A stretch of 64,000 bases of DNA from Escherichia phage PBECO4 (KC295538); one strand, 5' to 3'; numbered from the stretch's first letter, positions 5,299 through 23,800 are shown. Notes: generated from the letters alone by a model not told the origin. Numbers and translations: made by a program.

Positions 5299-5387
5299 GA
5301 TAAAACTCCTTAATTTAGGAGGGAGAACCATTTCCCCCTCTCTATGTAAAACATTATACTTGATTCTAAGTACTATGCAAGTACTTT
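5299..5387 (-). promoter_or_regulatory. sigma70-like promoter (TTGCAT-N16-TATAAT) + 5' UTR hairpin
   Basis: Minus strand reads ttgcatagtacttagaatcaagtataat then hairpin gagggggaaatggttctccctc then SD. Confidence 0.6.
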
Positions 5388-5720
5388 TTACATTTTAATT
5401 CCTGGATTCAGGTAACGGTGAGATCCATATTCTGGATAGGTTTCGTTCCAGTACTGTAAATCGATAGTACCTTTCGCGTTAATCTTGTCTACCAGCTTAT
5501 TCATCTTAGCGTATACTACGTCAGCATCGATGCGTTTAAAGCCAGTAGCTTTAGTGAAGTAGTAGTGATTTGCTTCACTATCATTAAGGATATACCGAGC
5601 ACCGTTTGCAGTCTGTGCGATAATGATTGAGTATTCTACTTCCCGATCCAGACCGTCGATGAATACAGATGAAACATTGGTACGGATGAAAGCTTTAACG
5701 ATAGCGATTGAAGTACTCAT
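5388..5720 (-). CDS. hypothetical protein
   Basis: Track ORF; own promoter upstream. Confidence 0.6.
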   Translation of the reverse strand: MSTSIAIVKAFIRTNVSSVFIDGLDREVEYSIIIAQTANGARYILNDSEANHYYFTKATGFKRIDADVVYAKMNKLVDKINAKGTIDLQYWNETYPEYGSHRYLNPGIKM

Positions 5721-5923
5721 TTTGAATCTCCTAACTTTGTGGGCCGTCGCACCATTGCCGCCCTACGAGATACATTATTGCAGTACTGATATACTTTGTC
5801 AATACTTTTTTATTAATAGTTTTAGTTCCACCAGCAGATAGTTACTCACCGTTATTAACTATATATTTTGGATACACTTATGCACCCTGTGGGCTGATTT
5901 GTTTCTATGCGTATATAATAGCA

Positions 5924-5951
5924 AAGGGACTGACCGGAGTCAATCCCTTTT
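5924..5951. terminator. TTGACT-containing hairpin flanked by A-run and T-run (bidirectional terminator-like, copy 1 of 12)
   Basis: aaagggactgaccggagtcaatcccttttt; same element recurs 11 more times. Confidence 0.5.
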
Positions 5952-5964
5952 TTATTCTTTTTTG

Positions 5965-6165
5965 TTAGATGATTCTCCAATCATCAACGATCATGGTAAG
6001 ATACCGAACCAGTGATTCGAGTGATTCGTGTTCTCGATAGTCTGCCGCACCGCCAGCGGTACAAGTACAGCCGATTAAGCCGTTTTGCAATTCCTTAATC
6101 TGTACATCGATAAGGTTGGCTTTAGCTTCTTTCAGTACTTCAACCAGGGCGAGAGCGATAGACAT
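5965..6165 (-). CDS. hypothetical protein
   Basis: Track ORF; promoter+hairpin at 6166..6255. Confidence 0.6.
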   Translation of the reverse strand: MSIALALVEVLKEAKANLIDVQIKELQNGLIGCTCTAGGAADYREHESLESLVRYLTMIVDDWRII

Positions 6166-6255
6166 AATGTTTTACTCCAAACTATTGGCGGGAGAACTAT
6201 TCCCCCGCTCTATGTAAAACATTATACATTACTGGTTAGTACTGTCAAATAGTTT
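6166..6255 (-). promoter_or_regulatory. sigma70-like promoter + 5' UTR hairpin
   Basis: tgtcaa/attata on + strand (TTGACA/TATAAT on minus), hairpin gcgggagaactattcccccgc. Confidence 0.6.
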
Positions 6256-6513
6256 TTATGAAATATCTTCGATGTAGTCGGCCCATTTCATTTTTTCAGT
6301 ACTGTCAATGGCTACCGGATTATTTGGATCAAACCATTCACCATTACCGCAATACATACCAACGGCTACGGTTTTATAGCCATCCTGGGCCGTACACCAC
6401 GACATTGCACGATAGATATGGCCTTTAACTGGTTGCAGTACTGGTAACGTTTTATGGTCTTCTACGTAGGCCATAGCTTGAGGATTTACCCGATATTGTG
6501 TGAATTGTTCCAT
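6256..6513 (-). CDS. hypothetical protein
   Basis: Track ORF; TTGACA-N17-TGTAAT upstream (6514..6589). Confidence 0.6.
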   Translation of the reverse strand: MEQFTQYRVNPQAMAYVEDHKTLPVLQPVKGHIYRAMSWCTAQDGYKTVAVGMYCGNGEWFDPNNPVAIDSTEKMKWADYIEDIS

Positions 6514-6589
6514 TATGTTTCCCCTTGTAGTTAGTAAAGTTATTACATCAGTACTATCAAGCTATGTCAATAGTACTGAAATAAAACTT

Positions 6590-6814
6590 TTAGATTAGAT
6601 TATTGAGGCCGTCAATGGTAGACTCACTTTCTTCTTTCTCCCATTGTCGGTAGTACTTCCATGCTTCATGATAGGTGGCGATTAGTTCATCTTTTTGATC
6701 CTGGTTACATGCCAGTACTGAATCACGGTGAGCGGTGTTATAGATAGAATCGAATGATTTCTTCTCTTCTGCCAGGTTAGCTACTTCCCGCATCAGTTCA
6801 TCAAAGTTAGCCAT
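6590..6814 (-). CDS. hypothetical protein
   Basis: Track ORF; own promoter+hairpin. Confidence 0.6.
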   Translation of the reverse strand: MANFDELMREVANLAEEKKSFDSIYNTAHRDSVLACNQDQKDELIATYHEAWKYYRQWEKEESESTIDGLNNLI

Positions 6815-6881
6815 TTTATTACTCCTTTTAGTGGGGGAGGATATCTCCCCCTATGCAAAACATTATACTTTGTTTTAGTTA
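6815..6881 (-). promoter_or_regulatory. sigma70-like promoter + 5' UTR hairpin
   Basis: hairpin gggggaggatatctccccc; atgcaaaacattatac motif. Confidence 0.55.
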
Positions 6882-7145
6882 TTATGCAAGTACTTTTTTC
6901 ATATAAACATTAAATTCTACACCGCCGTAACCTTCCACGATGATATGTTTTGCGTTATCACGTTTGCACATAGTGAAACCATCGTTTACGTGTTTTGCAT
7001 TTTCCAGGGCGACATCACCGATAGCGGCACATACAGCACTAATAACGATATTCCGCAAAGTACTGGTATCATTAGCGGTCATAGTAGTTTGCATGATTAC
7101 GTTGTCGTATACGTGTGCATTGATAGTGATTTCGATAGTGTTCAT
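6882..7145 (-). CDS. hypothetical protein
   Basis: Track ORF. Confidence 0.6.
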   Translation of the reverse strand: MNTIEITINAHVYDNVIMQTTMTANDTSTLRNIVISAVCAAIGDVALENAKHVNDGFTMCKRDNAKHIIVEGYGGVEFNVYMKKVLA

Positions 7146-7231
7146 GGTGTATCTCCTGGACTGGCGGGAGAACTATTCCCCCGCTCTATGTAAAACATTA
7201 TACGTTAATCTAACTACAATGCAAGTACTTT
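7146..7231 (-). promoter_or_regulatory. sigma70-like promoter + 5' UTR hairpin
   Basis: hairpin gcgggagaactattcccccgc; atgtaaaacattatac. Confidence 0.55.
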
Positions 7232-7423
7232 TTAAATTTTATTTCCGATATAGTCTGGCCTGTTCTTTTCGGTCATACGCTTAAGCATTTTTTGCATATG
7301 GCTTATTGCTTGTAGTGTATCCTCTTCCAGGGATGAATCGAGATAATCAGGATCATTCTTCACCTTGCAATGATTATGATAGCGTAGTACTGCCAGTACT
7401 TTTTTAACTTCTTCAACTGTCAT
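7232..7423 (-). CDS. hypothetical protein
   Basis: Track ORF; overlaps upstream gene by 4 nt. Confidence 0.55.
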   Translation of the reverse strand: MTVEEVKKVLAVLRYHNHCKVKNDPDYLDSSLEEDTLQAISHMQKMLKRMTEKNRPDYIGNKI

Positions 7424-7692
7424 AATAAGTACTCCACTTCGTTAGCTTTCAGGTTAGTATCAATCATCAATGGTTTTTTGTAGTTCACAAAACGATTAGT
7501 TTTTTCGATAGCGAATCCCATATAATCCAGCTTACTAACAGTACATTCATTCTTAAAAACTTCTTTCGCTGCATCGATGGCTGATTGCATGGATAACCGA
7601 CCATCTAAATTAATGTTTCCAAATGATCCACCAGCAGAAGTAGGATTACCGTTCATATCTTTAATGATCATAGTAGCGGAGTAGCTGGACAT
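7420..7692 (-). CDS. hypothetical protein
   Basis: Track ORF; promoter+hairpin at 7693..7776. Confidence 0.6.
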   Translation of the reverse strand: MSSYSATMIIKDMNGNPTSAGGSFGNINLDGRLSMQSAIDAAKEVFKNECTVSKLDYMGFAIEKTNRFVNYKKPLMIDTNLKANEVEYLL

Positions 7693-7776
7693 AATTTTGT
7701 TTCCTTTTAGTATCGGGGAGAACTATTCTCCCCTTGATGTAAACTATTATACAGTACTAATATACTTTGTCAATAC
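7693..7776 (-). promoter_or_regulatory. consensus sigma70-like promoter + 5' UTR hairpin
   Basis: Minus strand TTGACA (7773..7768), 16-nt spacer ending AGTACTG, TATAAT (7751..7746); hairpin ggggagaa-cta-ttctcccc 7714..7733. Confidence 0.65.
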
Positions 7777-7998
7777 TTAATTACGTTTAAAATGATATGT
7801 GCCTTTATCATCCTGTACGCCCCATACTGATTTACCATCAACACCAGTGAAGCCGGATTGTAATTCAATATGGAAACCATTATTATCAACTACAAAAACT
7901 TTTTTATTTTCATCCCGATAACATTGATATTCTGAATCAACATTAAAGGCCGCATCATTCAGAAGATTGGAAGCGTAAATGCAAGTCATTGTAGTCAT
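7777..7998 (-). CDS. hypothetical protein
   Basis: Track ORF 7777..8073 trimmed to ATG 7998 (MTTMTCIY..) with AAGGA SD; extension is translated promoter/hairpin. Confidence 0.6.
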   Translation of the reverse strand: MTTMTCIYASNLLNDAAFNVDSEYQCYRDENKKVFVVDNNGFHIELQSGFTGVDGKSVWGVQDDKGTYHFKRN

Positions 7999-8179
7999 GA
8001 TTTTATTCCTTATTGCCAGGGAGAACCGTTTCCCCCTCTCGATATAAAACATTATACTTGATTCTAAGTACAATGCAAGTACTTTTTTAAAATAGTTTTC
8101 AGTACTGAATACTTATATAATAGATACACTTCCGCACCCTATGGGTCAGTGAGTTATCTCTCAATGAATATATAATAGC

Positions 8180-8210
8180 AAAGGGACTGACCGGAGTCAA
8201 TCCCTTTTTT
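8180..8210. terminator. TTGACT-containing hairpin element (copy 2)
   Basis: aagggactgaccggagtcaatccctttttt. Confidence 0.5.
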
Positions 8211-8218
8211 AATCTTTT

Positions 8219-8803
8219 TTATCGTGTTATAGTTACGGCTTTTACATCACGCTTTTTATAGTACTGATTCCAGATATTGCGGGTTAAACCGTAATCAAGT
8301 ACTTTAATAAGGCCGTTGCGATCCTGGCCGATATTCTGTTTTCTGATATCTCTTATCGTTAGTGTTGACAGTGTATCATCAACGTGTTGTAGTGCATCAG
8401 CAAAGCGGTGCTGGCGTTCAATAGCATTACGTTTAATATTGTACTTTAATTCGTTGCACGCGTTAACGTGCTTCACACTGCCTTTACTTGCAGTACTCAA
8501 CCGATCCATAACAATAAACATATTATCAGGATCGCTTAAATGCATATGCACTTTAGCGAAGAACTGTTTCAACTGAGGGCGGTCATAGTCTAAAAAATTC
8601 CATACCCTACATTCTGTTTCATTTTGTTCTACACCCGCATCACAATTCGCGACCTTGATCACTAACCGATCATTTAAAGCGAAAACTATACGGGAAGAAC
8701 CCGCACCGATGATCTCCAGACCAGCTAACCGACAAGCTGAAAGGATCTCTTTGTTGGTTTCCATTGCTGACAGGGTACGGATGAATTTAGTATAATTACG
8801 CAT
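8219..8803 (-). CDS. protein kinase-like protein (Hanks-type fold)
   Basis: IGAGSSRIVF glycine loop, VIKV lysine, IRDIRKQNIG catalytic-loop-like, LDYG (DFG-like); start trimmed to ATG 8803 with AAGGAG. Confidence 0.55.
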   Translation of the reverse strand: MRNYTKFIRTLSAMETNKEILSACRLAGLEIIGAGSSRIVFALNDRLVIKVANCDAGVEQNETECRVWNFLDYDRPQLKQFFAKVHMHLSDPDNMFIVMDRLSTASKGSVKHVNACNELKYNIKRNAIERQHRFADALQHVDDTLSTLTIRDIRKQNIGQDRNGLIKVLDYGLTRNIWNQYYKKRDVKAVTITR

Positions 8804-8834
8804 TGCATGTTCTCCTTGAGTTAATGAAACTATC

Positions 8835-9134
8835 TTACAGTACTTTACTATCAATGGCAACTACTTTTTTTACACTAACCGCGTGAATCACTTCCTTAGT
8901 GTTTTTAGTACTGAATACTTTCGCCGTGCCTTGTTCTACTGCAATACGATAACGACCGTTAACATCAACCATATTAATAAAGTCCGGTGTACTAAACCGA
9001 GTAGTTTTACATTTCAGTACTGTTAACAGTTCCACCAGCGATGTGGTTTCTTTGATACGTTTTTCTAAAGTAATCATTTTGTTTTCCCCGTGTTGGTATG
9101 TACATATAGTACTAAAACATTTGAGTACTGTCAA
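8835..9134 (-). CDS. hypothetical protein
   Basis: Track ORF. Confidence 0.55.
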   Translation of the reverse strand: MTVLKCFSTICTYQHGENKMITLEKRIKETTSLVELLTVLKCKTTRFSTPDFINMVDVNGRYRIAVEQGTAKVFSTKNTKEVIHAVSVKKVVAIDSKVL

Positions 9135-9385
9135 CGTGATATTAGTTTTATTTTCTTATTATATTGTTGATGTTCATAAAGGTTTATCTTTCCTGTGTTC
9201 TCTATTACTATTCTGTTGTTAGTGTCTACATCGATTACACGCAGTTTTCCGTTGCTTAACTTCCTTGGTAATAGGTTACCATTAATAAACTCATTAGCAA
9301 GCTGTACGGCCTTTGTGATGATTCTCTGAGGTGCTTTATAGTGTACCCGCAAGATATTATCTTTAGATAGTTGTACCTTAATCAT
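9131..9385 (-). CDS. hypothetical protein
   Basis: Track ORF; 4-nt overlap with downstream gene. Confidence 0.55.
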   Translation of the reverse strand: MIKVQLSKDNILRVHYKAPQRIITKAVQLANEFINGNLLPRKLSNGKLRVIDVDTNNRIVIENTGKINLYEHQQYNKKIKLISR

Positions 9386-9400
9386 TTTAGTTTATCCTAT

Positions 9401-9425
9401 AAAAAAGGCGGGAACTGATCCCGCC
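9401..9425 (-). terminator. rho-independent terminator (minus strand)
   Basis: ggcgggaactgatcccgcc hairpin preceded on + by AAAAAA (U-run on minus), just 3' of gene 9448..9843. Confidence 0.6.
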
Positions 9426-9447
9426 GTGTTGTTAGTACTGCAAGTTA

Positions 9448-9843
9448 TTAGATAACCTGTCGGCGTTTACTATATACTGTTACACGATTACCCTTACGGT
9501 CGTGTCGGATCTCTTTCTGGTTGCGTACCAGTTCACTTGGACGCTTCAGGTTTGCCAGGTGATCCGCGTGAGTCCAAGCGGTATGGTTTGTCTGTACTTT
9601 GATATCAGAATCAGCGATAAACTCATCTTGTGCATCAAGTATTGACGCCAGTAAATCCGCTCGTTTTAGTTCTGCTGCTGTTAGTACTGGCTCCGGTGAA
9701 TTCACAATATCAGAGATCTCTTTGAACTGTACGGCCCAGCGTTGACCTTTCGGTGCATCTTTGCCCATGTCTTTAAATGTTTCGCCTTCCTCGCGTGCAA
9801 CAATACGGGCAGCTTCACGGGTAGCGTAGAATTTAGTAATCAT
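9448..9843 (-). CDS. hypothetical protein, paralog of 22341..22607
   Basis: Shared FATRE.ARI.AR..G.TFKDMG and DRKGNRVTVY segments. Confidence 0.6.
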   Translation of the reverse strand: MITKFYATREAARIVAREEGETFKDMGKDAPKGQRWAVQFKEISDIVNSPEPVLTAAELKRADLLASILDAQDEFIADSDIKVQTNHTAWTHADHLANLKRPSELVRNQKEIRHDRKGNRVTVYSKRRQVI

Positions 9844-9938
9844 GGTATACATCCTATTAGTTGAGTTAGTACTACAAGTTAGAGTCTATTATAAAGTACT
9901 ATCTGGGCAATGTCAAATAGTACTTTAAATGGATTCTA

Positions 9939-10262
9939 TTACATGTCTTTCTTACGTTTTACATCGTGGTAGCGAACTGTTATTTCTTTGTTGATCTCTT
10001 CCTCGATGCGGTGAATAACTGTTTCTTTCGGGTTGAAACCTATAACGGTTTCTTTAATGATCTCCAAGCCCGTGTATTCTCCTTGTGTACCGTAACCGTA
10101 AGTAAAGGTTTCATGTCCCAGGTCTTCCCAGCGGTCGCCAATTAACGCGGACACGTAGCAAGAGTGGTAAGTGTTACCGTTCCGATCAGTCCAGCGATTA
10201 ACTTTAATGTCAAAGGAGGTTACAATTTTCAGTTCTACTTTCTGGGTAAGGATCATAGCCAT
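9939..10262 (-). CDS. hypothetical protein, paralog of 16709..17032
   Basis: Shared RWTD..GNTYHSC.VS, FTYGY, C-terminal DVKRKKD. Confidence 0.6.
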   Translation of the reverse strand: MAMILTQKVELKIVTSFDIKVNRWTDRNGNTYHSCYVSALIGDRWEDLGHETFTYGYGTQGEYTGLEIIKETVIGFNPKETVIHRIEEEINKEITVRYHDVKRKKDM

Positions 10263-10352
10263 TTTTATTTCTCTCTCTCTTTGTTAGGAGGGGAACCGTT
10301 TCCCCTCGCTTGATGTAAACTATTATACAGTACTAAGATACTTTGTCAATAC
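10263..10352 (-). promoter_or_regulatory. sigma70-like promoter + 5' UTR hairpin
   Basis: tgtcaa/attata on +; hairpin gaggggaaccgtttcccctc. Confidence 0.6.
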
Positions 10353-10535
10353 TTATTTTTTGGAAAGTTTACGCATTAATTCTACGCTTTCTTGTGAACG
10401 TTTTGCTACCTGGCAATCTGTATGGGTAGTAAACATTTTTGTATAGTCTGACGGTTTGCCACCGAACCGAGCGGCACGCTCACGGGCACTTGGAACTAAT
10501 ACGATTTCTTTCTTACAGATAGTGCACTTAGCCAT
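10353..10535 (-). CDS. small Cys-containing protein (possible zinc ribbon)
   Basis: CTICKK...HTDC in 60 aa; own promoter+hairpin. Confidence 0.5.
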   Translation of the reverse strand: MAKCTICKKEIVLVPSARERAARFGGKPSDYTKMFTTHTDCQVAKRSQESVELMRKLSKK

Positions 10536-10620
10536 TTTTATTTCTCTCTCTTTGTTAGGAGGGGAACCATTCCCCCCTTGATGTAAACTATTATACAGTA
10601 CTAAGATACTTTGTCAATAC
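10536..10620 (-). promoter_or_regulatory. sigma70-like promoter + 5' UTR hairpin
   Basis: Near-identical copy of unit 10263..10352. Confidence 0.6.
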
Positions 10621-10896
10621 TTAATTATTGTAAATGCAGTGAATAGTGATAAAGTTTTTACGACCGTAAACCTGCAAATCAATATCAATGTAGTGCTTAT
10701 CAAGTACATCCTCGACGCTTAACGCGGTGTCGTGAATATCTTCGTAGAATTGAGGATCTACAATCTTGCTTAAGTCATCCGGCGTTAACTTATCGTTAAG
10801 CCATTGAACCGCCTGGATATCTGCTTCACGTTTCCAGTCTTCCAGGTTAGTAGTCAGTACTTGCTCGATTTCGTTAGCTGTCAGTAGAATCCGCAT
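10621..10896 (-). CDS. hypothetical protein
   Basis: Track ORF. Confidence 0.55.
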   Translation of the reverse strand: MRILLTANEIEQVLTTNLEDWKREADIQAVQWLNDKLTPDDLSKIVDPQFYEDIHDTALSVEDVLDKHYIDIDLQVYGRKNFITIHCIYNN

Positions 10897-11093
10897 TTTT
10901 ATGTTTCCTTATCAGTAGTTGATGTAAGTATTATACTCGTTTACTTTCTATTGTCAATCTTTTTTTATCAGGGGAGTTTTTCGTATGTCTTACTCCTGGA
11001 CTACTTAACGGGGTTACTTGTTTTGTTCCCCGTCCTGATGTAAAACATTATACTTGATTCTAAGTACAATGCAAGTACTTTTTAAAAATAGTT

Positions 11094-11258
11094 TTACTTA
11101 CTCATATTAACAGGCTTGAACGGTGGCAATGTAAGATCATGCGGGGTTAAACTATCATGCTTTGCCCACATACCGGAATCCCTACGGAATAATACCTTAT
11201 TGTTTTTTATACGATAAAAGTTACCATTATCAGTGTTTTTGTACCATATCATTTTCAT
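11094..11258 (-). CDS. hypothetical small protein (54 aa)
   Basis: Own translation MKMIWYKNTDNGNF..; GGAG SD; promoter motif upstream. Confidence 0.4.
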   Translation of the reverse strand: MKMIWYKNTDNGNFYRIKNNKVLFRRDSGMWAKHDSLTPHDLTLPPFKPVNMSK

Positions 11259-11398: not shown

Positions 11399-11430
11399 AA
11401 AGGGACTGACCGGAGTCAATCCCTTTTTTA
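11399..11430. terminator. TTGACT-containing hairpin element (copy 3)
   Basis: agggactgaccggagtcaatccctttttt. Confidence 0.5.
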
Positions 11431-12076: not shown

Positions 12077-12159
12077 TTTTCTTTCCTCTCAGTGGGGAGA
12101 ATCATTTCTCCCCTTCATGTAACTTATTATACAGTACTAGATTATCTTGTCAATAGTTT
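12077..12159 (-). promoter_or_regulatory. sigma70-like promoter + 5' UTR hairpin
   Basis: ggggagaatcatttctcccc hairpin; tgtcaa/attata. Confidence 0.6.
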
Positions 12160-12705: not shown

Positions 12706-12780
12706 TTCCTCTTAGTAGGGGAAGATGTTTCCCCTTGATGTAAGTACTATAACACTACTGGATAGTACTGTCAATACTTT
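12706..12780 (-). promoter_or_regulatory. promoter + 5' UTR hairpin
   Basis: hairpin aggggaagatgtttcccct; tgtcaa -35. Confidence 0.5.
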
Positions 12781-14391: not shown

Positions 14392-14485
14392 TTTGTTTTC
14401 TCTCTGTTAGTGGGGAGAATCATTTCTCCCCTTCATGTAACTTATTATACAGTACTATAATCTATTGTCAAACTATTTTTTTATA
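14392..14485 (-). promoter_or_regulatory. sigma70-like promoter + 5' UTR hairpin
   Basis: ggggagaatcatttctcccc hairpin identical to that at 12077..12159. Confidence 0.6.
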
Positions 14486-14827: not shown

Positions 14828-15019
14828 GATTCGTTTCCTTATTACTAGGGGAAACCGTTTCCCCTTTCGATGTAAAACATTATACGCTTATTGAGATAGT
14901 TTGCAAGTACTTTTTATCAAATACTTTAAAATAGTTTTCAGTACTCAAACATTATACAATAGATACACTCCTGCACCCTGTGGGCTAGTGAGCTATCTCT
15001 CAATGATTATATAATAACA

Positions 15020-15426: not shown

Positions 15427-15507
15427 TTTGTATCTCCTGTTATCGGGGAGAATCATTTCTCCCCTTCATGTAAAACATTATACAGTACTAAAAACTAATT
15501 GCAAGTA
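15427..15507 (-). promoter_or_regulatory. sigma70-like promoter (TTGCAA -35) + 5' UTR hairpin
   Basis: ggggagaatcatttctcccc; ttgcaagtatt on +. Confidence 0.6.
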
Positions 15508-15750: not shown

Positions 15751-15819
15751 TATACTTTCCTCGTTAGGTGTAAGGGGAACGTTTTCCCCTTCATGTAAAA
15801 CATTATACAGTACTGAAAA
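15751..15819 (-). promoter_or_regulatory. sigma70-like promoter + 5' UTR hairpin
   Basis: aggggaacgttttcccct hairpin. Confidence 0.55.
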
Positions 15820-16029
15820 CTAATTGCAAGTACTTTCCGAAAGTAAATGCTCATACGCTGCATTAACTACATTTTCAATAACCGACTGTACAGAAAGATC
15901 CCCCACGTCCTGGCTATAGTAGAAATTGCTTACAGTGGTGTCATCGTATGCAAATACTTTACCAGGTACTGCATCAATCACATACATATTAACCTTTAAG
16001 ATGTCGATCTTATCCTGTACAGTAAGCAT
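15820..16029 (-). CDS. hypothetical protein
   Basis: Track ORF. Confidence 0.55.
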   Translation of the reverse strand: MLTVQDKIDILKVNMYVIDAVPGKVFAYDDTTVSNFYYSQDVGDLSVQSVIENVVNAAYEHLLSESTCN

Positions 16030-17336: not shown

Positions 17337-17423
17337 TTTAGTTTCCTCATTATCAGGGAGAACCATTTCTCCCCTTGATGTAATGTATTATACTTTATTC
17401 GATTTACTTTGCAAGTACTTTTT
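17337..17423 (-). promoter_or_regulatory. sigma70-like promoter + 5' UTR hairpin
   Basis: gggagaaccatttctcccc hairpin. Confidence 0.55.
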
Positions 17424-17651: not shown

Positions 17652-17888
17652 TGTTTTGATTCCTTTGATTTGGAAGGAGAACCGTTTCCCCCTCTCGATG
17701 TAAAACATTATACGCTAATCTCTTAATCGTGCAAGTACTTTTTATTACTTTTTGCAAAATACTTTAAACGCTCTCAATCGCATTCTAACGACCTTAACGC
17801 CACCAGCTAGGGCGATGTATCAGATAATCAGTTTAATGCGTTAGAATCGATTCTAGGCGGTGCTGGTGGACTGGAATACTACAGACAC

Positions 17889-17915
17889 AAAAAAGCCCAC
17901 TGTTTAAGGTGGGCT
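17889..17915 (-). terminator. rho-independent terminator (minus strand)
   Basis: agcccactgtttaaggtgggct hairpin with A-run on + (U-run on minus), 3' of gene 17937..18419. Confidence 0.6.
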
Positions 17916-17936
17916 AGTGATTCAGTACTTTAATTG

Positions 17937-18419
17937 TTATGCTTCAACTTTGCGATGAGCTTCGATCCATTCCTCGCGAGTCATACCGCTTTCTTTGATA
18001 GCGTCCAGTACTACCGCAATGCAGTTACCGCGTACAGGAATCATATGTTCTTCCCCGTTATCAAGTACTACAGTAACACGTTCTTGAATCCATTTTTTAG
18101 GTTTAGATTCTGGCTTATCTTCACCATACTTAACCGCCAGGGCTTTATGTGCCATTTCTACAACTACTTCCAGATCCAATCCAGCCACCGCCGCCTGGAT
18201 ACTTTCGATTGTTGCTTGCAGTTCGGCTTCACGGGCTTTTTTCTGTTCTTCCAGTTCTGCTACCTTTTTGGCTTGCAGTTCTTTAGCTTCACTGTACGCA
18301 ATGTTAAAATTGTTGCGTACTGCTTTCATGGTATCGTTATCCAGGTCAGCCAACAATTCAGCAGCAATAACAGTATCGTTTGAAATCAGTGCTTTCAGGA
18401 ATGATTTTACATTAGCCAT
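17937..18419 (-). CDS. hypothetical protein (predicted coiled-coil segment)
   Basis: Track ORF trimmed to MANVKSF..; central AKELQAKKVAELEEQKKAREAELQ heptad-like stretch. Confidence 0.6.
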   Translation of the reverse strand: MANVKSFLKALISNDTVIAAELLADLDNDTMKAVRNNFNIAYSEAKELQAKKVAELEEQKKAREAELQATIESIQAAVAGLDLEVVVEMAHKALAVKYGEDKPESKPKKWIQERVTVVLDNGEEHMIPVRGNCIAVVLDAIKESGMTREEWIEAHRKVEA

Positions 18420-18623
18420 TTTATAAATCCTCAATTAAAGTTTAGTTTACGTTTATTAGTGTATCAAAGTTTTATCGACGTGTCCAGTTTTTCGTTCGAC
18501 TTACTGGCGGTCTACTTAGTGCTCCCCGTCTTGATGTAATACATTCTACGCCTTTTTGTGGTAATGTCAACTACTATTTTAAAACTATTTTTAAAGTATG
18601 CAGTACTACGATAATACAAAAAC

Positions 18624-18650
18624 AAAAAAGCCCACTGTTTAAGGTGGGCT
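18624..18650 (-). terminator. rho-independent terminator (minus strand)
   Basis: Second copy of agcccactgtttaaggtgggct with A-run. Confidence 0.6.
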
Positions 18651-18667
18651 AGTGATTCAGTACTATA

Positions 18668-18967
18668 TTATAAACAGTTAATTACTCCGGTGTGCGTTAC
18701 TTTCTCAGTATCCATAACCGTGACCGATCCACGCTTAGTACTTACATCGTAATAAATTGTCGTGCTACCTTTTTCGTCTTCTTCATGGAACGGGCCGCTT
18801 TTAAATGCTTCTGGCTGGATCTCTAAATCCTTTAAAACAATCTCGCCAGTACTTTCATCTGTCATCGCAACAGTGCACTGAATGAATTTTTCACTACTTA
18901 CATCTAACGACGCATTAACAGCGAAAGAGGAAACAGATAAAGCCAGGGCGATGATTGCAATTTTCAT
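18668..18967 (-). CDS. small secreted protein (signal peptide)
   Basis: MKIAIIALALSVSSFAVNA N-terminus. Confidence 0.6.
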   Translation of the reverse strand: MKIAIIALALSVSSFAVNASLDVSSEKFIQCTVAMTDESTGEIVLKDLEIQPEAFKSGPFHEEDEKGSTTIYYDVSTKRGSVTVMDTEKVTHTGVINCL

Positions 18968-19051
18968 TTGATTATCCTTAGTTACCAGGGGGAACCGCTC
19001 CCCCGTGCGATGTAAAATATTGTACAGTACTAAAAACTAATTGCAAGTACT
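18968..19051 (-). promoter_or_regulatory. sigma70-like promoter + 5' UTR hairpin
   Basis: agggggaaccgctccccct hairpin. Confidence 0.55.
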
Positions 19052-19288
19052 TTATGATTTTTTATAAAACATTTCGGCAGTAATATTTTTACCCGTTGGT
19101 TGTACTTTATCCAGAATTTTTTGATGCCCTGGCCGTCCAAATGAATATGATCCGTAAACCGTAAACCAGTAGTTACCCTCAGTGTTTACATGTACAGCAC
19201 AATAGGGAACGCCCCGCGATTCATCACCAATAAAGTGTGATACCGTTCCCGTTACATTAGCAGACGTTGATTTGATTTGTTCAAGCAT
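19052..19288 (-). CDS. hypothetical protein
   Basis: Track ORF. Confidence 0.55.
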   Translation of the reverse strand: MLEQIKSTSANVTGTVSHFIGDESRGVPYCAVHVNTEGNYWFTVYGSYSFGRPGHQKILDKVQPTGKNITAEMFYKKS

Positions 19289-19397
19289 TTTCTTATTCCT
19301 TAGTTACCAGGGGGAACCGCTCCCCCTATGCAAAACATTATACGCGTTTAAAAACTAATAGCAAGTATTTTAATAAAAAGTATTTGAAAAATAATTG

Positions 19398-19426
19398 TTG
19401 ACAACTGCATCCAGTACTGGCATAAT
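19398..19426 (+). promoter_or_regulatory. + strand sigma70-like promoter (TTGACA-N17-CATAAT) driving a short noncoding transcript
   Basis: ttgaca 19398..19403, cataat 19421..19426; downstream box ctaacccaccgggtgc; no + strand ORF. Confidence 0.45.
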
Positions 19427-19500
19427 TACTACATCAAGACGAAACAGTCACTAACCCACCGGGTGCCGAGATCCGTCTATTAAATGATTCAGTACTTAAC

Positions 19501-19524
19501 AATAAAGGGGATCAATCGATCCCC
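19501..19524 (-). terminator. hairpin terminator (minus strand; may also stop the + strand transcript)
   Basis: ggggatcaatcgatcccc with flanking A/T runs immediately 3' of gene 19531..19752. Confidence 0.5.
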
Positions 19525-19530
19525 TATGTA

Positions 19531-19752
19531 TTACTTAGTAAGGTATAAACAGAAGTCACCTTTATTTGCTACGCCGCCAGTGTAACGCGATGAATAGTTA
19601 GAAACGTCCTGGACTTCTGCTATTACCAGTGTATCATCATTCAATTCGTCGCAGAAGCAAACGGCTGGATCTTTTACGCCGATCTTGTCGGCATGTTCCC
19701 GCATAGATTTAACCAGTGCTTCCAGTTGAGAAAGAGTAGTGATATTAGCCAT
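19531..19752 (-). CDS. hypothetical protein
   Basis: Track ORF trimmed to ATG 19752 (MANITTLSQ..). Confidence 0.55.
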   Translation of the reverse strand: MANITTLSQLEALVKSMREHADKIGVKDPAVCFCDELNDDTLVIAEVQDVSNYSSRYTGGVANKGDFCLYLTK

Positions 19753-19836
19753 TGTATTTTCCTCATTACCAGGGAGAACCATTTCTCCCCTCTATGTAAA
19801 CTATTATACAGTACTGAAAACTAATTGCAAGTACTT
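19753..19836 (-). promoter_or_regulatory. sigma70-like promoter + 5' UTR hairpin
   Basis: gggagaaccatttctcccc hairpin. Confidence 0.55.
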
Positions 19837-20025
19837 TTAATTAAATTCCATAAAATCATTCTCAACGTGCACAACAATTTGATTGTTTTTAAAGTCCGCA
19901 GCGAACTCGATGCAATCATAAACCGCTTTTTGTGTTACAATGCTATGAGTACCAATCGGATTAATAGGGGATTGAATTGTTTCAATCTCGTTCCCTTGCT
20001 CATTAACAATTAAAATATTAAACAT
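19837..20025 (-). CDS. hypothetical protein
   Basis: Track ORF. Confidence 0.5.
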   Translation of the reverse strand: MFNILIVNEQGNEIETIQSPINPIGTHSIVTQKAVYDCIEFAADFKNNQIVVHVENDFMEFN

Positions 20026-20081
20026 CGCTGTTACTCCTGGGTAGTGTTAACTCGATATAAAGTATTATACGCCTTTATTGC

Positions 20082-20324
20082 TTAGTGTCCAGTACTTTTT
20101 AAAACATATTCATAAACACTACGCACATCATTGATCATCGCCTGGCGGTTAGCAGGTAACGCACCAGGATCGCCACTATCCCAGGCATTGATAAAACTCC
20201 CCAAATCATGAAAGATTTTATTCTGTAAGCCGATTAACTGCAATTCTTTTTCTTCAAGCTCTTTGATACGGTCAATTAAAAGACTCATTAGATAATCCTC
20301 AGTACTTAATTGTAAGATCCGCAA
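20082..20324 (-). CDS. hypothetical protein
   Basis: Track ORF. Confidence 0.5.
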   Translation of the reverse strand: MRILQLSTEDYLMSLLIDRIKELEEKELQLIGLQNKIFHDLGSFINAWDSGDPGALPANRQAMINDVRSVYEYVLKSTGH

Positions 20325-20632
20325 CGGTTACAATAGTGCCCGTCTTCCTCGTCATCGTCAACGAATTGACCGACGAAATTATCTACTTTCTCTTTGAGAT
20401 TCTGATAATTGTTTTCAACTTCCTTTAGACGTTCCTGGTAGTATTCCAGGGCTTGCACATACGCCGCCTCAGCCGTTTTCGCTCTTAAGGCTAAATTCAT
20501 GCCACGCGTTTCATCGTACATCCAAAAGCCATCGGTGCACTCACTGATTGACAATGATTTGGTTAACACTTTATAGTCAATTACTTTGCTCATTAGATAA
20601 TCCTCAGTAAAGGCGGGAACCACACCCGCCAT
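20306..20632 (-). CDS. hypothetical protein
   Basis: Track ORF; C-terminal CNRC. Confidence 0.5.
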   Translation of the reverse strand: MAGVVPAFTEDYLMSKVIDYKVLTKSLSISECTDGFWMYDETRGMNLALRAKTAEAAYVQALEYYQERLKEVENNYQNLKEKVDNFVGQFVDDDEEDGHYCNRCGSYN

Positions 20633-20649
20633 TGATTCAGTACTGAATG

Positions 20650-20889
20650 TTACATTCCAACCATTGCAGCACGGATCGCCGTAGTGCTATACTTGAATCC
20701 GTCCGGTGTTGTAGTAGTACCGTTGGCTTTTAATCTGCGGTACATACATTGGGCCGCAATATCTTTAGTTTTACATTGTGCGATGCAACTTTGAGCAAGC
20801 CGATATAATGACTCACCGTTATTAATCCACAATGAAACATTCCAATGAGTTTTGTTTTTGTGCCCGTTGTAAGTTTTAGTAGTAGCCAT
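20650..20889 (-). CDS. hypothetical protein, paralog of 22698..22937
   Basis: Shared GHKNKTHWNVSLWINN..LYRLAQ and C-terminal TPDGFKYSTTAIRAAMVGM. Confidence 0.6.
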   Translation of the reverse strand: MATTKTYNGHKNKTHWNVSLWINNGESLYRLAQSCIAQCKTKDIAAQCMYRRLKANGTTTTPDGFKYSTTAIRAAMVGM

Positions 20890-20985
20890 TTTTAAATCCT
20901 CGTTTAATTGAGCGGGAGAACCATTCCCCCGCCTCGATATAAAGTATTATACGCTTTTAAACTTAGTTTGCAAGTACTTTTTAAA
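20890..20985 (-). promoter_or_regulatory. sigma70-like promoter + 5' UTR hairpin
   Basis: gcgggagaaccattcccccgc hairpin. Confidence 0.55.
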
Positions 20986-21597
20986 TTAATATGCGATTGA
21001 TTCTACTACGTCATCAATAACATTGAATTGATACTCGTTACCCTCGATCAGTGCCGTGATGTTCTCAGTAGTGAATTGATCCTCATATGCATTCTCTAAA
21101 TCACGGTACAACTTGCGGGACAATTCACGAATAGTATCAGTGAGTAGTTCCTCAAGCTCATTAACTAACGTTTCTTGTTTTGCGGTTAAATCAGTGTAAG
21201 CCGATTCAATGTACCCGCTTACAGTATTCTCATGCGAGTAGTGGGAGTGCGAACGCTTTACACTCATCGCCAAATCATCTTCATTCAGCAAGTGACGGAT
21301 TGAGCGATACTTAGTTAATGCTCTTACCTTGCGTAAAAACTTCACTGCGTCAACGTGGTCAGTACTGATTGATGCACCGTCACCCTGGGACCAAAAACCA
21401 CTGAATTGTATTTCAGCTTCATTAATGCCATATTCCGGTAGTACTGTTTCTTTATAGTATTCAATTTCACTTTCAGAAAAATAATTGTCGTTTGAGTTTT
21501 TTTCACGTTCCCGAACCAGTTCGATAGCTGACGTTTGTTGTTCTGCGTTCAATTCAGAAAAATCCATAACGAAAGTAGTAGTAGTGATAGTTTTCAT
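20986..21597 (-). CDS. hypothetical acidic protein (203 aa)
   Basis: Track ORF. Confidence 0.6.
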   Translation of the reverse strand: MKTITTTTFVMDFSELNAEQQTSAIELVREREKNSNDNYFSESEIEYYKETVLPEYGINEAEIQFSGFWSQGDGASISTDHVDAVKFLRKVRALTKYRSIRHLLNEDDLAMSVKRSHSHYSHENTVSGYIESAYTDLTAKQETLVNELEELLTDTIRELSRKLYRDLENAYEDQFTTENITALIEGNEYQFNVIDDVVESIAY

Positions 21598-21819
21598 TTT
21601 GTAACCCTCATTCAGTAGTTGATGTAAGTATTATACGCTTTTAAAAACATTTGTCAAACTATTTTATCAGGGGAGTTTTTCGTGTGCCTTACTCCTGGGC
21701 TACTTAACGGGAAGTTACTTATTTCGTTCCCCGTCCTGATGTAAAACATTATACGCCTTTAAACATAGTTTGCAAGTACTTTTTAAAAATAGTTTTCAGT
21801 ACTGAATATTAAAAAAGTA

Positions 21820-21848
21820 TTGACAGCATTATCAAGTACTGGCATAAT
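21820..21848 (+). promoter_or_regulatory. + strand sigma70-like promoter (TTGACA-N17-CATAAT) driving a short noncoding transcript
   Basis: ttgaca 21820..21825, cataat 21843..21848; downstream ctaacccaccgggtgc box then atagatacactcccgcaccctatgggct box. Confidence 0.45.
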
Positions 21849-22022
21849 ATACCACATGACAACAGCTAACCCACCGGGTGCACAATTGTAACTATACTAA
21901 ACTAATTTTTCTATAGATACACTCCCGCACCCTATGGGCTACGGCTTATCTGCCAATGAATACATTATGCCAGTACTGACAAAATAAGTCAATACCGGCA
22001 ATTGTAAAGATTTGTAAACTAC

Positions 22023-22253
22023 TTATACTGCAATCGCGTCCAGGCTATAATAATAATAAGTGCCGTATTGGTGTACTTTATTACCTTTTATTTCAGTACT
22101 GAATGAATCCGAACGATTTGCATATGATGTTAATTTAAAGTACTTTGATTTGCTGATACGTTGCCATACACCACAGATCCGCTGTAAGTAAGTAGTTTTA
22201 TTCGTGGTAGTATCTTTTACGGTTTTAACTTCAGTCATATACATATTAGTCAT
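22023..22253 (-). CDS. hypothetical protein
   Basis: Track ORF. Confidence 0.55.
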   Translation of the reverse strand: MTNMYMTEVKTVKDTTTNKTTYLQRICGVWQRISKSKYFKLTSYANRSDSFSTEIKGNKVHQYGTYYYYSLDAIAV

Positions 22254-22340
22254 TTTTATTACTCCAGGTTATAGGCGGGAAGAGTTCCCGCTCTCGATGT
22301 AAAACATTATACGCCTTTAAACATAGTTTGCAAGTACTTT
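22254..22340 (-). promoter_or_regulatory. sigma70-like promoter + 5' UTR hairpin
   Basis: gcgggaagagttcccgc hairpin. Confidence 0.55.
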
Positions 22341-22607
22341 TTATTCAAGTACTGCAATCTTTTTAGTACGGTACACGGTCACGCGGTTGCCCTTTCGGTC
22401 GAGCTTTATTTCTACCACTCGACGCGATACACTATCGGGACTTTTTAAGGCCGCTAACCAGTACTGTAATGATCTGGCTGTACTACGCTTTACAATGGCC
22501 CAACGTTTACCACGTTCCGATTGTACGCCCATATCTTTAAACGTTGCCCCGTCCTGGCGTGCGGCGATCCGAGCTTGTTCACGCGTCGCAAAATACTTAA
22601 TATTCAT
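22341..22607 (-). CDS. hypothetical protein, paralog of 9448..9843
   Basis: Trimmed to ATG 22607 (MNIKYFATREQARIAARQDGATFKDMG..). Confidence 0.6.
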   Translation of the reverse strand: MNIKYFATREQARIAARQDGATFKDMGVQSERGKRWAIVKRSTARSLQYWLAALKSPDSVSRRVVEIKLDRKGNRVTVYRTKKIAVLE

Positions 22608-22697
22608 GCTGTTGCCCTTATCGTTGGTGTATGAATAAAACACTATTATAAAGTACTATCGCAAAAAATGATAGTACTTTAAATAAATTCTATTCTA

Positions 22698-22937
22698 TTA
22701 CATTCCAACCATCGCCGCACGGATCGCAGTAGTGCTATACTTAAAGCCGTCCGGTGTTTTATCTTGTCCAGTCTGTTCTAAAAATAGCATCATATGACGG
22801 GCCGCATCATTACGATTAGTATTGGCGGCAATAAAGTCCTGGGCCAACCGATACAATCCCTCATCGTTATTAATCCAAAGGCTTACATTCCAATGAGTTT
22901 TGTTTTTGTGACCTAAGAACATTTTTGATTTAGCCAT
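22698..22937 (-). CDS. hypothetical protein, paralog of 20650..20889
   Basis: Trimmed to ATG 22937 (MAKSKMFLGHKNKTHWN..). Confidence 0.6.
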   Translation of the reverse strand: MAKSKMFLGHKNKTHWNVSLWINNDEGLYRLAQDFIAANTNRNDAARHMMLFLEQTGQDKTPDGFKYSTTAIRAAMVGM

Positions 22938-23019
22938 TTTTTTAATCCTCTTATATAGTGGGGAACTATTCCCCACCTGATGTAAAGTATTATACGCTTT
23001 TAAATTTAGTTTGCAAGTA
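22938..23019 (-). promoter_or_regulatory. sigma70-like promoter + 5' UTR hairpin
   Basis: gtggggaactattccccac hairpin. Confidence 0.55.
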
Positions 23020-23253
23020 CTATTTTTTCAGTACTGGTAAACCTTTGATCTCACCTGGCTGTACTTCCTCAAAGGCGACCGCCATCATACGGCTATCATC
23101 TTCCTTACATTCTTCCATCGCATCACAAAAATGATTAATAACGTCCGGTGCAACGTCAACCACATCAAACAAGCCAACCTCAGTGCAACGGCTTAAAGCG
23201 TTTAATAGGTCAGTCAGTGCAACGGATTGAGAAACAGTTAAAATAGTACTCAT
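23020..23253 (-). CDS. hypothetical acidic protein
   Basis: Track ORF. Confidence 0.55.
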   Translation of the reverse strand: MSTILTVSQSVALTDLLNALSRCTEVGLFDVVDVAPDVINHFCDAMEECKEDDSRMMAVAFEEVQPGEIKGLPVLKK

Positions 23254-23347
23254 ACAATTAATCTCTTAATTATAGTGGGGAACTATTCCCCACCTGATGT
23301 AAAACATTATACGCTTTTAAACTTAGTTTGCAAGTACTTTATTAAAC
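23254..23347 (-). promoter_or_regulatory. sigma70-like promoter + 5' UTR hairpin
   Basis: Same hairpin as 22938..23019. Confidence 0.55.
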
Positions 23348-23710
23348 TTATTTGTAAATTTTGCCACTGTCAGCCCATACCAGGAAACGAGGCATATTAT
23401 CCCATGCATCTTGTTTTAAATTTAAACCGTGCAATTCCTCAGTAGTTGCCATCCCTGGTACTGGCTTACTACACACCGCGAAATTTTCGCCCATATACTG
23501 ATAAACCATCGTCAAATCATTTGAGATCATCTTATGGATCATCGCATCAAGCATCACGGTAGCGGCGTATTGTTCACGCTTAAGCGGCAGCATTTTAATC
23601 AGTTCGCGGTATGCGTCAATGTGAGTTTTAACCGTTGCCGCCGGAAGATCTTTCATCTCGTCGCGGAAGTTAACCAGGTTAGCAATAATTTTGGTGATTT
23701 GAGTTGCCAT
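23348..23710 (-). CDS. hypothetical protein
   Basis: Track ORF trimmed to ATG 23710 (MATQITKIIA..). Confidence 0.6.
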   Translation of the reverse strand: MATQITKIIANLVNFRDEMKDLPAATVKTHIDAYRELIKMLPLKREQYAATVMLDAMIHKMISNDLTMVYQYMGENFAVCSKPVPGMATTEELHGLNLKQDAWDNMPRFLVWADSGKIYK

Positions 23711-23800
23711 CGTTTTAATCTCTCTTAAAGTGTAGCGGGAACACTTCCCGCTCTCGATGTAAAACATTATACGCTTTTATCAGTACGGTGCAAGTACTTT
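23711..23800 (-). promoter_or_regulatory. sigma70-like promoter + 5' UTR hairpin (last unit before noncoding hub)
   Basis: gcgggaacacttcccgc hairpin. Confidence 0.55.

Follow-up and report, generated by a model that had tools for sequence, protein, structure and literature searches.

Why should a phage place a short G/C-rich hairpin directly behind one strong promoter after another, each in front of a different small gene? This question is raised by a stretch of 64,000 nucleotides (nt) from Escherichia phage PBECO4 (KC295538), here called the window, in which a unit of about 80 bases recurs on the minus strand between 5299 and 23800. Each unit opens with a -35 element, which a spacer of 16-17 nt separates from TATAAT; a leader of the conserved gttttaCAT type comes next, and after it a G-run/C-run hairpin, a Shine-Dalgarno (SD) sequence and an ATG. 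Bases 9000-15000 are 91-97% identical to the Asteriusvirus jumbo coliphages JNE01, SHEFM2K, phAPEC6 and TH47, and the phage carrying the units is an Asteriusvirus-like jumbo coliphage of the RaK2 clade. From comparison of the sequences, we conclude that the element is real, well defined and structurally selected.

To locate the units, we scanned positions 5000-24000 for the sigma70 consensus and found ten perfect promoters (12/12), every one on the minus strand, and about 25 more scoring 10-11/12. This agrees with an earlier reading made from the sequence alone (the sequence-only reading), which had described near-consensus sigma70 promoters with 16-17 nt spacers. The unit promoters carry TTGACA, TTGCAA, TTGCAT or TTGCAC as the -35 element, followed after 16-17 nt by TATAAT, and are preceded by an AT-rich upstream element, aaaaagta(c). 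We then aligned 25 units, built a covariance model (R1) of the -10 element, leader and hairpin, and ran it with filters off over both strands of all 64 kb. At a cut-off of E ≤ 1e-7 it gave 25 matches, all on the minus strand, of which 24 lay within 5317-23772 and the remaining one at 50245-50283. The images that the stems leave on the plus strand scored only 7-15 bits. Long-loop variants scored lower (21704-21754, 11005-11053; a weaker third at 18505-18549), and together with a unit of imperfect stem (promoter at 5802) they bring the total in the array to 24 canonical units and 4 variants. The earlier figure of about 30 was therefore a slight over-count of a real and stereotyped element. The list of open reading frames (ORFs) holds about 52 minus-strand genes within 5299-23800. 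Some strong promoter stands before roughly 35 of them and a canonical unit before 24 (46%). All but one of the 25 canonical units sit in a single 18.5-kb array of genes for proteins of 50-130 amino acids. Pfam searches with ten proteins encoded downstream of units returned no family for nine and DUF7249 for one; the genes downstream of the units are ORFans.

The geometry of the unit was narrowly constrained. In the window, the distance from the -10 element to the stem was 8-14 nt (mean 11.8); in a set of 79 units, the mode of this offset was 12 nt. The hairpins in the window measured 17-23 nt, with a G/C-rich stem of 7-10 bp and a loop of 3-5 nt, and 11-25 nt (mean 19.6), including the SD, separated the end of the stem from the start codon. 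The eight bases after the stem contained on average 1.7 T and at most 3, whereas the four clearest intrinsic terminators nearby (9425, 17915, 18650, 19525) had 6-7 T in the same interval. An intrinsic terminator, which also has a G/C-rich stem of 7-10 bp and a small loop, was accordingly rejected: the units have no U-tract, as had been noted before, and their stem is found behind a promoter and not at the end of a gene. G·T pairs accounted for 18 of the 212 stem pairs in the window. All four stem pairs quoted earlier (ggggagaa/ttctcccc, gcggga/tcccgc, gtgggga/tccccac and aggggg/ccccct) were found. A core of GGGG(R)AA / TT(Y)CCCC recurred, and much of the similarity between stems is on this account attributable to shared ancestry; variation fell mostly at pair 4 and pairs 6-9, numbered from the loop. 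The purine-rich arm was always 5', the reverse orientation was never seen, and GGAG was present in only about half of the stems.

To assess pairing in a wider set, we added related loci from the Asteriusviruses G17, 121Q and EJP2, the Vequintavirinae A7_1 and LTH01, a Yersinia Eneladusvirus, RaK2 and two metagenomic contigs. Scanning these loci with the covariance model gave a pooled set of 105 matches (93 distinct rows). A plain MAFFT alignment was not structure-aware and was replaced by model-fitted alignments and by loop-anchored counts, the latter being independent of the model register and covering 99 distinct units from 10 sources. Among these 99 units, which carried 43 distinct stems, a contiguous stem of at least 7 bp was present in 88.9%, compared with 9.8% (maximum 18%) after shuffling, which excludes chance pairing. 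In the pooled alignment, 89.8% of cells were paired (76.9% in shuffles) and 83 cells showed double-sided changes (25.3 in shuffles), a number attained in 0 of 500 shuffles. The covariation score was 0.377 against 0.161 for shuffled sets; all slid registers scored lower, and a smaller set agreed. The check by covariation that had been proposed thus came out in favour of compensatory change.

The variable positions were consistent with this. Pair 4 and pairs 6-8 from the loop alternated among GC, CG, AU, UA and GU. The -10 element and leader were nearly invariant, the stems had an entropy of 0.1-1.1 bits, and the loops were near-maximal at 1.3-1.9 bits, with 19 different loop sequences and up to 6 loops on one stem. 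RaK2 carried GGGAATGAA/TTCATTCCC and GGGGATACA/TGTATCCCT stems in the same slot and geometry but of unrelated sequence, and the Yersinia Eneladusvirus carried GGTAAGC/GCTTACC after the same promoter and leader; the RaK2 and Yersinia stems were A/U-richer in the loop-proximal half, with pairing still kept. Orthologues of the gene starting at 19288 had six different well-formed hairpins in six phages, one of them differing by a paired G/C deletion. These comparisons indicate that the hairpin structure is under selection and is kept through compensatory change. The claim that structure rather than sequence is selected therefore stands for the pairing but needs qualifying, as the invariably purine-rich 5' arm overlaps an initial transcribed sequence that is itself conserved, and as a stem core recurs. 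As a separate observation, orthologous hairpins with perfect Watson-Crick stems (loops 23742-23744 and 22282-22284 compared with related loci, including G17) sometimes had loops that were exact reverse complements (gtg/cac; ctc/gag), as would be expected from small DNA inversions over an inverted repeat.

Whether this structure is read in RNA or in DNA was assessed by a strand-symmetric count restricted to stems, in which G·T and A·C were equally allowed as internal interruptions; it replaced counting of G·U in full minimum-free-energy folds, which was confounded by weak flanking pairs. On the sense strand, 22 internal G·U pairs were found against 5 A·C (P = 0.0015), and by our own reading four of the five A·C lay in two doubtful outer extensions. 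The sense-strand fold was the more stable in 44 units and the antisense fold in 27 (Wilcoxon P = 0.004), and many stems were shorter, broken or absent on the plus strand. Given the asymmetry between G·U and A·C, the hairpin is most likely selected as a single-strand structure of the sense strand, that is, as RNA; a DNA palindrome or operator is disfavoured by the same asymmetry and by the weaker stems on the other strand.

The leader of the units closely resembles that of the early promoter A1 of phage T7. T7 A1 has GATACT, 7 nt, the annotated +1 A and then TCGAGAGGG, while the units have TATAAT, the 7 nt gttttac and then ATCGAGAGGG in the same register. Over the ten bases of ATCGAGAGGG, two units were identical to T7 A1 and four more had one mismatch; all six occurrences lay inside units, and 1.2 were expected by chance in the window. 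The likeness to T7 A1 (and A2) extends to a strong sigma70 early promoter with an upstream A-tract, a 7-nt discriminator and +1 A, and folding predicts 5'-terminal helices for the leaders of T7 A1 and A2. The T7 leaders differ in having their partner strand some 20 nt more distant, so that the fold is longer and branched, and in that one promoter trio serves a long operon processed by RNase III, whereas the units here provide one promoter per gene. By this analogy, transcription very probably starts at the conserved A that is the 8th nt after TATAAT, a position occupied by A in 97/98 units. Given this in-register agreement with the initial transcribed sequence of T7 A1, the hairpin would lie inside the transcript, as had been supposed. 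From the start so placed, stems would begin at +2 to +8 and reach about +27, and the unpaired 5' tail would be 0-8 nt long (3-5 nt in 72/98 units; at most 4 nt in 58/98), a borderline length under the classical rule for protection by 5'-terminal stems.

The array itself is highly mosaic. Portions of 5000-24500 matched 202 phage records, none of which spanned at least 80% of the region; the best covered 64%, in 13 pieces. When the window was compared with G17, 121Q and EJP2, 34/68 ends of homology blocks fell inside hairpin cassettes (12.7% expected, P ~ 1e-13) and 45/68 inside any promoter cassette (18.5% expected). Many copies of the unit were near-identical over 40-90 nt. A 96-nt cassette query matched 61 phage records, at 9-32 places per Asteriusvirus genome, and it also matched RaK2-clade phages of Salmonella and Klebsiella and the ~140-kb Vequintavirinae. 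Cassettes plus some genes were indeed present in the Vequintavirinae: the rV5-like phage A7_1 had cassettes and several small genes in common with the window at 72-89% identity. A scan of IMG/VR with GTATAATRNTTTACAT gave, among the matches listed, mostly single chance matches, with real units on three contigs (RaK2, a 360-kb jumbo contig and a 109-kb contig). Taken together, these comparisons suggest that the promoter-hairpin unit behaves as a recombining cassette, located at mosaic block boundaries and common to unrelated phages. A bolder version, in which the unit would be a horizontally mobile "expression plug" carrying small host-takeover genes between RaK2-clade and rV5-like lineages and the hairpin a shared RNA handle for one phage or host factor setting the stability or translation of the whole early regulon, is in our view quite unlikely.

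A palindrome, AGTACT, accompanies the promoters, with two sites in each (aAGTACTtgcaa and cAGTACTgTATAAT). The window contained 266 copies against 21.6 expected from base composition (~12-fold), making it the most over-represented 6-mer; it was densest in 4000-28000, absent from 1-4000, present in all three codon phases and denser still between genes. The excess was 13-23-fold in G17, 121Q, EJP2, RaK2, the Yersinia Eneladusvirus and two metagenomic jumbo contigs and about 1-fold in the Vequintavirinae, and 99 kb of RB49 had 0 sites. It was not mentioned in the literature searched. This jumbo-phage signature is kept inside the copies in rV5-like phages, which suggests a direction of gene flow.

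Among described systems, the closest are the PeSLs (promoter-early stem-loops) of the T4-like phages RB49/phi1, PST and nt-1. In these conserved cassettes a strong sigma70 promoter is joined to a stem-loop of the G-run/C-run kind; they stand before ORFans, are implicated in modular shuffling, and have stem-loops reported to act as terminators (Arbiol et al. 2010, PMC2839356; Comeau et al. 2014, PMC4122927). Mini-circles produced by recombination between cassettes are a further feature ascribed to PeSLs. Both kinds of unit (about 100 bp in the PeSLs) combine a near-consensus sigma70 early promoter, an AT-rich upstream region, a stem-loop of G-run, loop and C-run, and an SD; both have G-T pairs in their stems, and both lie in hyperplastic ORFan regions at boundaries of insertion, deletion and replacement between related phages. 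The positions listed for PeSL stem-loops are upstream of the -35, over the -35, in the spacer, over the -10 and just before the start (PMC2839356). Those that we inspected in RB49 lay in the spacer or over the -10, hence outside their own promoter's transcript, and are read as terminators; in the units here, every stem follows the inferred start, in the 5' untranslated region (5'UTR) and at a fixed distance. The hosts also differ, being RaK2-clade jumbo and rV5-like phages rather than Straboviridae, and our covariance model found no match at E ≤ 0.1 in RB49 1-50,000 and 115,001-164,018 (~99 kb), which indicates no sequence homology to the RB49 PeSLs. The units thus resemble PeSL-type cassettes in a variant form that carries its hairpin within the 5'UTR. 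The hairpin also recalls the 5' stabilisers of the E. coli mRNAs ompA and papA studied in the Belasco laboratory, stable stem-loops placed at the very 5' terminus, just before the ribosome site, in which pairing counts for more than sequence (PMC3997798). The 5' tail predicted here would often be longer (5-6 nt in 37/98 units), and the cassette is a repeated, mobile one that serves about 25 genes.

Other candidates were examined and rejected. A nut/boxB element did not fit the 19 loop sequences of near-maximal entropy, and the boxA-like YGCTCTTWA had 3 matches, all on the other strand and at chance level. RNase III sites of the T7 early type are double-stranded stems of ~20 bp, and the stems here have 7-10 bp. 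An Rfam search of 4500-26000 at E ≤ 1 returned merely 3 sub-threshold chance matches. Published accounts of phAPEC6, Asteriusvirus, Sharanji, fEgEco12, CBB, rV5, PA5oct and fHe-Yen9-03 describe sigma70-type early promoters or nothing of the kind, and do not mention the hairpin. In the GenBank record of G17, one of 14 promoter-hairpin units is annotated (6567-6586), as an ARNold "putative transcriptional terminator".

The best explanation, to which we assign a probability of about 0.55, is a self-contained early-gene cassette read by the host sigma70 RNA polymerase, whose 5'UTR hairpin would protect or insulate the message and whose sequence would provide shared homology for gene exchange. The parts of such a cassette would be an A-rich/AGTAC upstream element, near-consensus -35 and -10 elements, a 7-nt discriminator and a +1 at the conserved A. 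Once transcribed, the purine-rich, T7-A1-like initial sequence would pair at once with its pyrimidine-rich partner into a hairpin of 7-10 bp, beginning 0-8 nt (usually 3-5) from the 5' end; a few unpaired bases would separate it from the Shine-Dalgarno sequence, behind which comes the start codon. With the 5' end of the early mRNA locked in a stable helix, 5'-end-dependent decay through RppH and RNase E would be reduced, because both enzymes require single-stranded 5' termini (PMC3997798). The hairpin would also hide a G-run that would otherwise outcompete the true SD for ribosomes, leaving the real ribosome site downstream open and independent of context; the predicted binding of the free 5' arm to the anti-SD averages -8.4 kcal/mol, compared with -5.8 for the real SDs. 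Placed before dozens of unrelated ORFans, the ~80-bp cassette would offer shared homology for gene gain, loss and swapping, as proposed for PeSL. We infer both the stabilising or insulating effect and any causal role of the cassette in recombination.

Several points weigh against this explanation. The placement of the start is inferred from the T7 A1 analogy, and the resulting 5' tail would be at least 5 nt in 40/98 units, while stabilisation, as Emory, Bouvet and Belasco reportedly found in 1992, requires the stem to lie no more than about 2-4 nt from the 5' end. For enzymes of the RppH type, 2-3 unpaired nt suffice, as stated for the Bacillus enzyme (PMC3997798). About a dozen equally strong promoters of the same array have no hairpin, which is thus not required for early expression; their leaders are not G-rich, by inspection no separate terminator precedes them, and the contrast yielded no functional clue. 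Common descent links the units, whose independence the shuffle statistics therefore overstate, and part of the G·U excess could come from a C-to-T mutation bias that affects the non-template strand where DNA is heavily transcribed, rather than from selection. Finally, block ends would hit intergenic DNA in any gene-wise mosaic, so their enrichment in cassettes is no proof of cassette-driven recombination.

The hairpin might instead be a by-product of the promoter, with the purine-rich, T7-A1-like leader selected in DNA for fast promoter escape and the 3' arm serving only to neutralise a decoy SD. The in-register identity of ATCGAGAGGG to T7 A1, the invariably 5' position of the purine-rich arm, the advantage of the free arm over genuine SDs in anti-SD binding and the lack of G-richness in the leaders of hairpin-less promoters all fit this idea. 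It presumes, however, a link of leader sequence to promoter escape, and the RaK2 and Yersinia stems are maintained although they are A/U-richer near the loop. We regard it as somewhat unlikely, and it overlaps the protective cassette without excluding it. An attenuator or terminator damping read-through from upstream cassettes, with a PeSL-like function that would keep transcription from accumulating along an array with a promoter before nearly every gene, appears unlikely. According to Arbiol et al. 2010 (PMC2839356), a PeSL G-run/C-run stem-loop reduced lacZ expression to an extent similar to rrnB T1. The RB49 stem-loops inspected likewise lack a long T-run, upstream genes have their stop codons only ~10-20 nt ahead of the -35, the array contains few true terminators, and the ARNold annotation in G17 points the same way. 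Against this, each canonical stem is placed after the start of the promoter that it belongs to and would act on that promoter's transcripts too, and a pure role as an upstream terminator would not fix the stem 8-14 nt past the -10. The shortage of T after the stem argues similarly, hairpin-less promoters are not preceded by terminators, and separate terminator-like hairpins over the -35, including the copies with a T-run at 42-60 kb, suit the role better.

A helix bound by a phage or host protein (translational repressor, RNase or chaperone), acting as a common RNA operator for the early regulon, which it might for instance switch off when middle genes take over, would account for a core conserved beyond the needs of pairing and for the same element standing before two dozen early genes. 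Phages do shut off early mRNAs post-transcriptionally, for example through T4 RegA and RegB. However, the 19 loop sequences are hypervariable, the RaK2 and Yersinia stems are unrelated in sequence, GGAG occurs in only half of the stems, no candidate binding protein was identified, and descent together with the constraint on the initial transcribed sequence explains the core equally well; such an operator is very unlikely. At the level of DNA, the inverted repeat at a fixed place beside the promoter could be a palindrome for a dimeric repressor at +5 to +27, or an attC-like recombination site folding in single-stranded DNA, and the coincidence of cassettes with mosaic boundaries and the inversion-like loops would suit it. 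Yet in a double-stranded operator G·T and A·C should erode the symmetry to the same degree, and the count was 22:5; moreover, on the opposite strand many stems are broken or lose length, the half-site is not conserved across genera, and the ten downstream proteins scanned had no Pfam match other than DUF7249 (the region's other genes were not scanned for an integrase). We consider a DNA-level element extremely improbable. Equally hard to credit is a hairpin of no function, merely inherited with a duplicated promoter cassette: the near-identity of many copies over 40-90 nt would follow from it, but in 43 stems the pairing has survived double changes as well as paired indels, with loops and tails drifting freely, and different stems occupy the same slot in three genera.

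These results give a precise and testable account of early expression in RaK2-clade jumbo phages, in which dozens of unknown genes each have one portable ~80-bp module. They extend the PeSL idea, that regulatory cassettes are the seams of mosaicism, beyond T4-like phages and to a stem-loop within the message, with the same cassette found in two unrelated phage groups. The units also offer natural promoter/5'UTR parts of compact size, in about 40 stem variants found in nature, for work on mRNA stability and insulation, and with the covariance model early genes can be annotated in related genomes that are poorly annotated so far. The coordinates of the units are collected in the table.

Table. 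Promoter-hairpin units and their variants in the window (hairpins given as 5' arm, loop, 3' arm)
Feature	Position	Strand	Promoter	Hairpin	ATG	Remarks
Canonical unit	23711..23793	-	TTGCAC-N16-TATAAT	23734-23752 AGCGGGAA gtg TTCCCGCT	23710	SD
Canonical unit	23254..23333	-	TTGCAA-N16-TATAAT	23274-23294 GGTGGGGAA tag TTCCCCACT	23253	
Canonical unit	22938..23016	-	TTGCAA-N16-TATAAT	22957-22977 GGTGGGGAA tag TTCCCCACT	22937	
Canonical unit	22254..22333	-	TTGCAA-N16-TATAAT	22275-22291 GCGGGAA ctc TTCCCGC	22253	
Canonical unit	20890..20973	-	TTGCAA-N16-TATAAT	20911-20933 GGCGGGGGAA tgg TTCTCCCGCT	20889	2 G·U; DUF7249 protein
Canonical unit	19753..19830	-	TTGCAA-N16-TATAAT	19771-19790 GGGGAGAA atgg TTCTCCCT	19752	
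Canonical unit	19289..19364	-	TTGCTA-N16-TATAAT	19308-19328 TAGGGGGAG cgg TTCCCCCTG	19288	
Canonical unit	18968..19046	-	TTGCAA-N16-TACAAT	18988-19004 GGGGGAG cgg TTCCCCC	18967	
Canonical unit	17652..17734	-	TTGCAC-N16-TATAAT	17673-17694 GAGGGGGAA acgg TTCTCCTTC	17651	Leader ATCGAGAGGG = T7 A1; 2 G·U
Canonical unit	17337..17414	-	TTGCAA-N16-TATAAT	17355-17374 GGGGAGAA atgg TTCTCCCT	17336	
Canonical unit	15751..15829	-	TTGCAA-N16-TATAAT	15772-15791 AAGGGGAA aacg TTCCCCTT	15750	
Canonical unit	15427..15504	-	TTGCAA-N16-TATAAT	15445-15464 GGGGAGAA atga TTCTCCCC	15426	
Canonical unit	14828..14906	-	TTGCAA-N16-TATAAT	14847-14865 AGGGGAAA cgg TTTCCCCT	14827	
Canonical unit	14392..14471	-	TTGACA-N16-TATAAT	14412-14431 GGGGAGAA atga TTCTCCCC	14391	
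Canonical unit	12706..12774	-	TTGACA-N17-TATAGT	12717-12735 AGGGGAA acatc TTCCCCT	12705	
Canonical unit	12077..12153	-	TTGACA-N16-TATAAT	12094-12113 GGGGAGAA atga TTCTCCCC	12076	
Canonical unit	10536..10617	-	TTGACA-N16-TATAAT	10559-10577 GGGGGGAA tgg TTCCCCTC	10535	Internal G·U
Canonical unit	10263..10349	-	TTGACA-N16-TATAAT	10288-10307 GAGGGGAA acgg TTCCCCTC	10262	
Canonical unit	7999..8078	-	TTGCAT-N16-TATAAT	8018-8037 AGGGGGAA acgg TTCTCCCT	7998	Leader ATCGAGAGGG = T7 A1
Canonical unit	7693..7773	-	TTGACA-N16-TATAAT	7715-7733 GGGGAGAA tag TTCTCCCC	7692	
Canonical unit	7146..7224	-	TTGCAT-N16-TATAAT	7164-7184 GCGGGGGAA tag TTCTCCCGC	7145	
Canonical unit	6815..6889	-	TTGCAT-N16-TATAAT	6833-6851 GGGGGAG atatc CTCCCCC	6814	
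Canonical unit	6166..6248	-	TTGACA-N16-TATAAT	6188-6208 GCGGGGGAA tag TTCTCCCGC	6165	Hairpin identical to 7164-7184 despite different -35/spacer
Canonical unit	5299..5380	-	TTGCAT-N16-TATAAT	5319-5340 GAGGGGGAA atgg TTCTCCCTC	5298	
Sole canonical unit outside array	50230..50304	-	TTGACA-N16-TATAAT	50247-50267 GGGGATGA acttc TCATCCCT	50229	
Divergent unit	5721..5802	-	TTGACA-N17-AATAAT	Imperfect, GGGCGGC...GCGACGGCCC	5720	SD; similar unit in rV5-like A7_1
Variant	21640..21775	-	TTGCAA-N16-TATAAT gttttacATCAGGACGGGG...			Same promoter/leader, then ~85-nt structured non-coding segment; second promoter 21657; gene
Variant, second copy	10940..11074	-	Cassette promoter			~85-nt structured non-coding segment, then second promoter 10957
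Variant, degenerate third copy	18440..18570	-	TTGACA-N16-TAGAAT			Structured non-coding segment

In the long-loop variants (minus strand, 10958-11047, 21650-21750 and 18480-18550), the cassette-type promoter is followed by a segment of ~85 nt without an ORF, for which a multi-helix fold is predicted (-20.2 kcal/mol, z = -2.5). The segment is conserved in G17, 121Q and the rV5-like A7_1, and may be a small RNA.

A second class of hairpin in the window overlaps the -35 and in this matches the layout of RB49-type PeSLs. One member, a repeated non-coding element on the minus strand (5830-5962, 8085-8219, 11300-11438 and 14915-15058, also 13255-13385 and 21870-22010), has a terminator-like hairpin over the promoter -35 (AAAGGGATTGACtccgGTCAGTCCCTTTgcTATTAT) and, ~45 nt further on, the strongly conserved motif ACCC(A/T)ATAGGGTGC-N4-TGTATCTAT. 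It also occurs in Yersinia phage fHe-Yen9-03, and could encode a small RNA or serve a phage factor as a site or promoter. The other, a composite terminator/promoter AAAGGGTTGACttcgGTCAGCCCTTTTTgcTATAAT, has the -35 within the stem, followed by a T-run plus TATAAT, and is present in at least 8 minus-strand copies in 42000-60000 (46128, 47915, 48841, 53038, 54126, 55701, 55886 and 59127).

Judged by GC skew, coding lies on the minus strand until ~25 kb, and no tRNA genes were found in the 64-kb window. The gene array is headed by ~1.3 kb without a credible ORF (23800-25100, minus), which starts at a perfect promoter at 25077. This segment contains a degenerate 8-nt tandem array, GACGGCTA, of about 12 copies (24536-24634), duplicated blocks of ~50 nt (23840-23930) and a G-run hairpin without a promoter (24474-24492); 121Q and EJP2 have unannotated gaps at the corresponding place. 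Possible roles are those of an origin, a site for packaging or a region of non-coding RNA. On the plus strand, a GCCAGTAC-nnn-GTACTGGC hairpin with a T-run recurs about every 1.2 kb in 32186-40901, one behind each of a set of paralogous genes annotated in 121Q as RCC1-like "DNA condensation" proteins. A second class of promoter cassette, without a hairpin, was found on the minus strand with its -35 at 17104, 14158 and 13365; it reads cacagtactaTTGACA-N17, ending in TGgCATAAT (an extended -10), with the leader aacttttatcaa, and is present in A7_1 as well.

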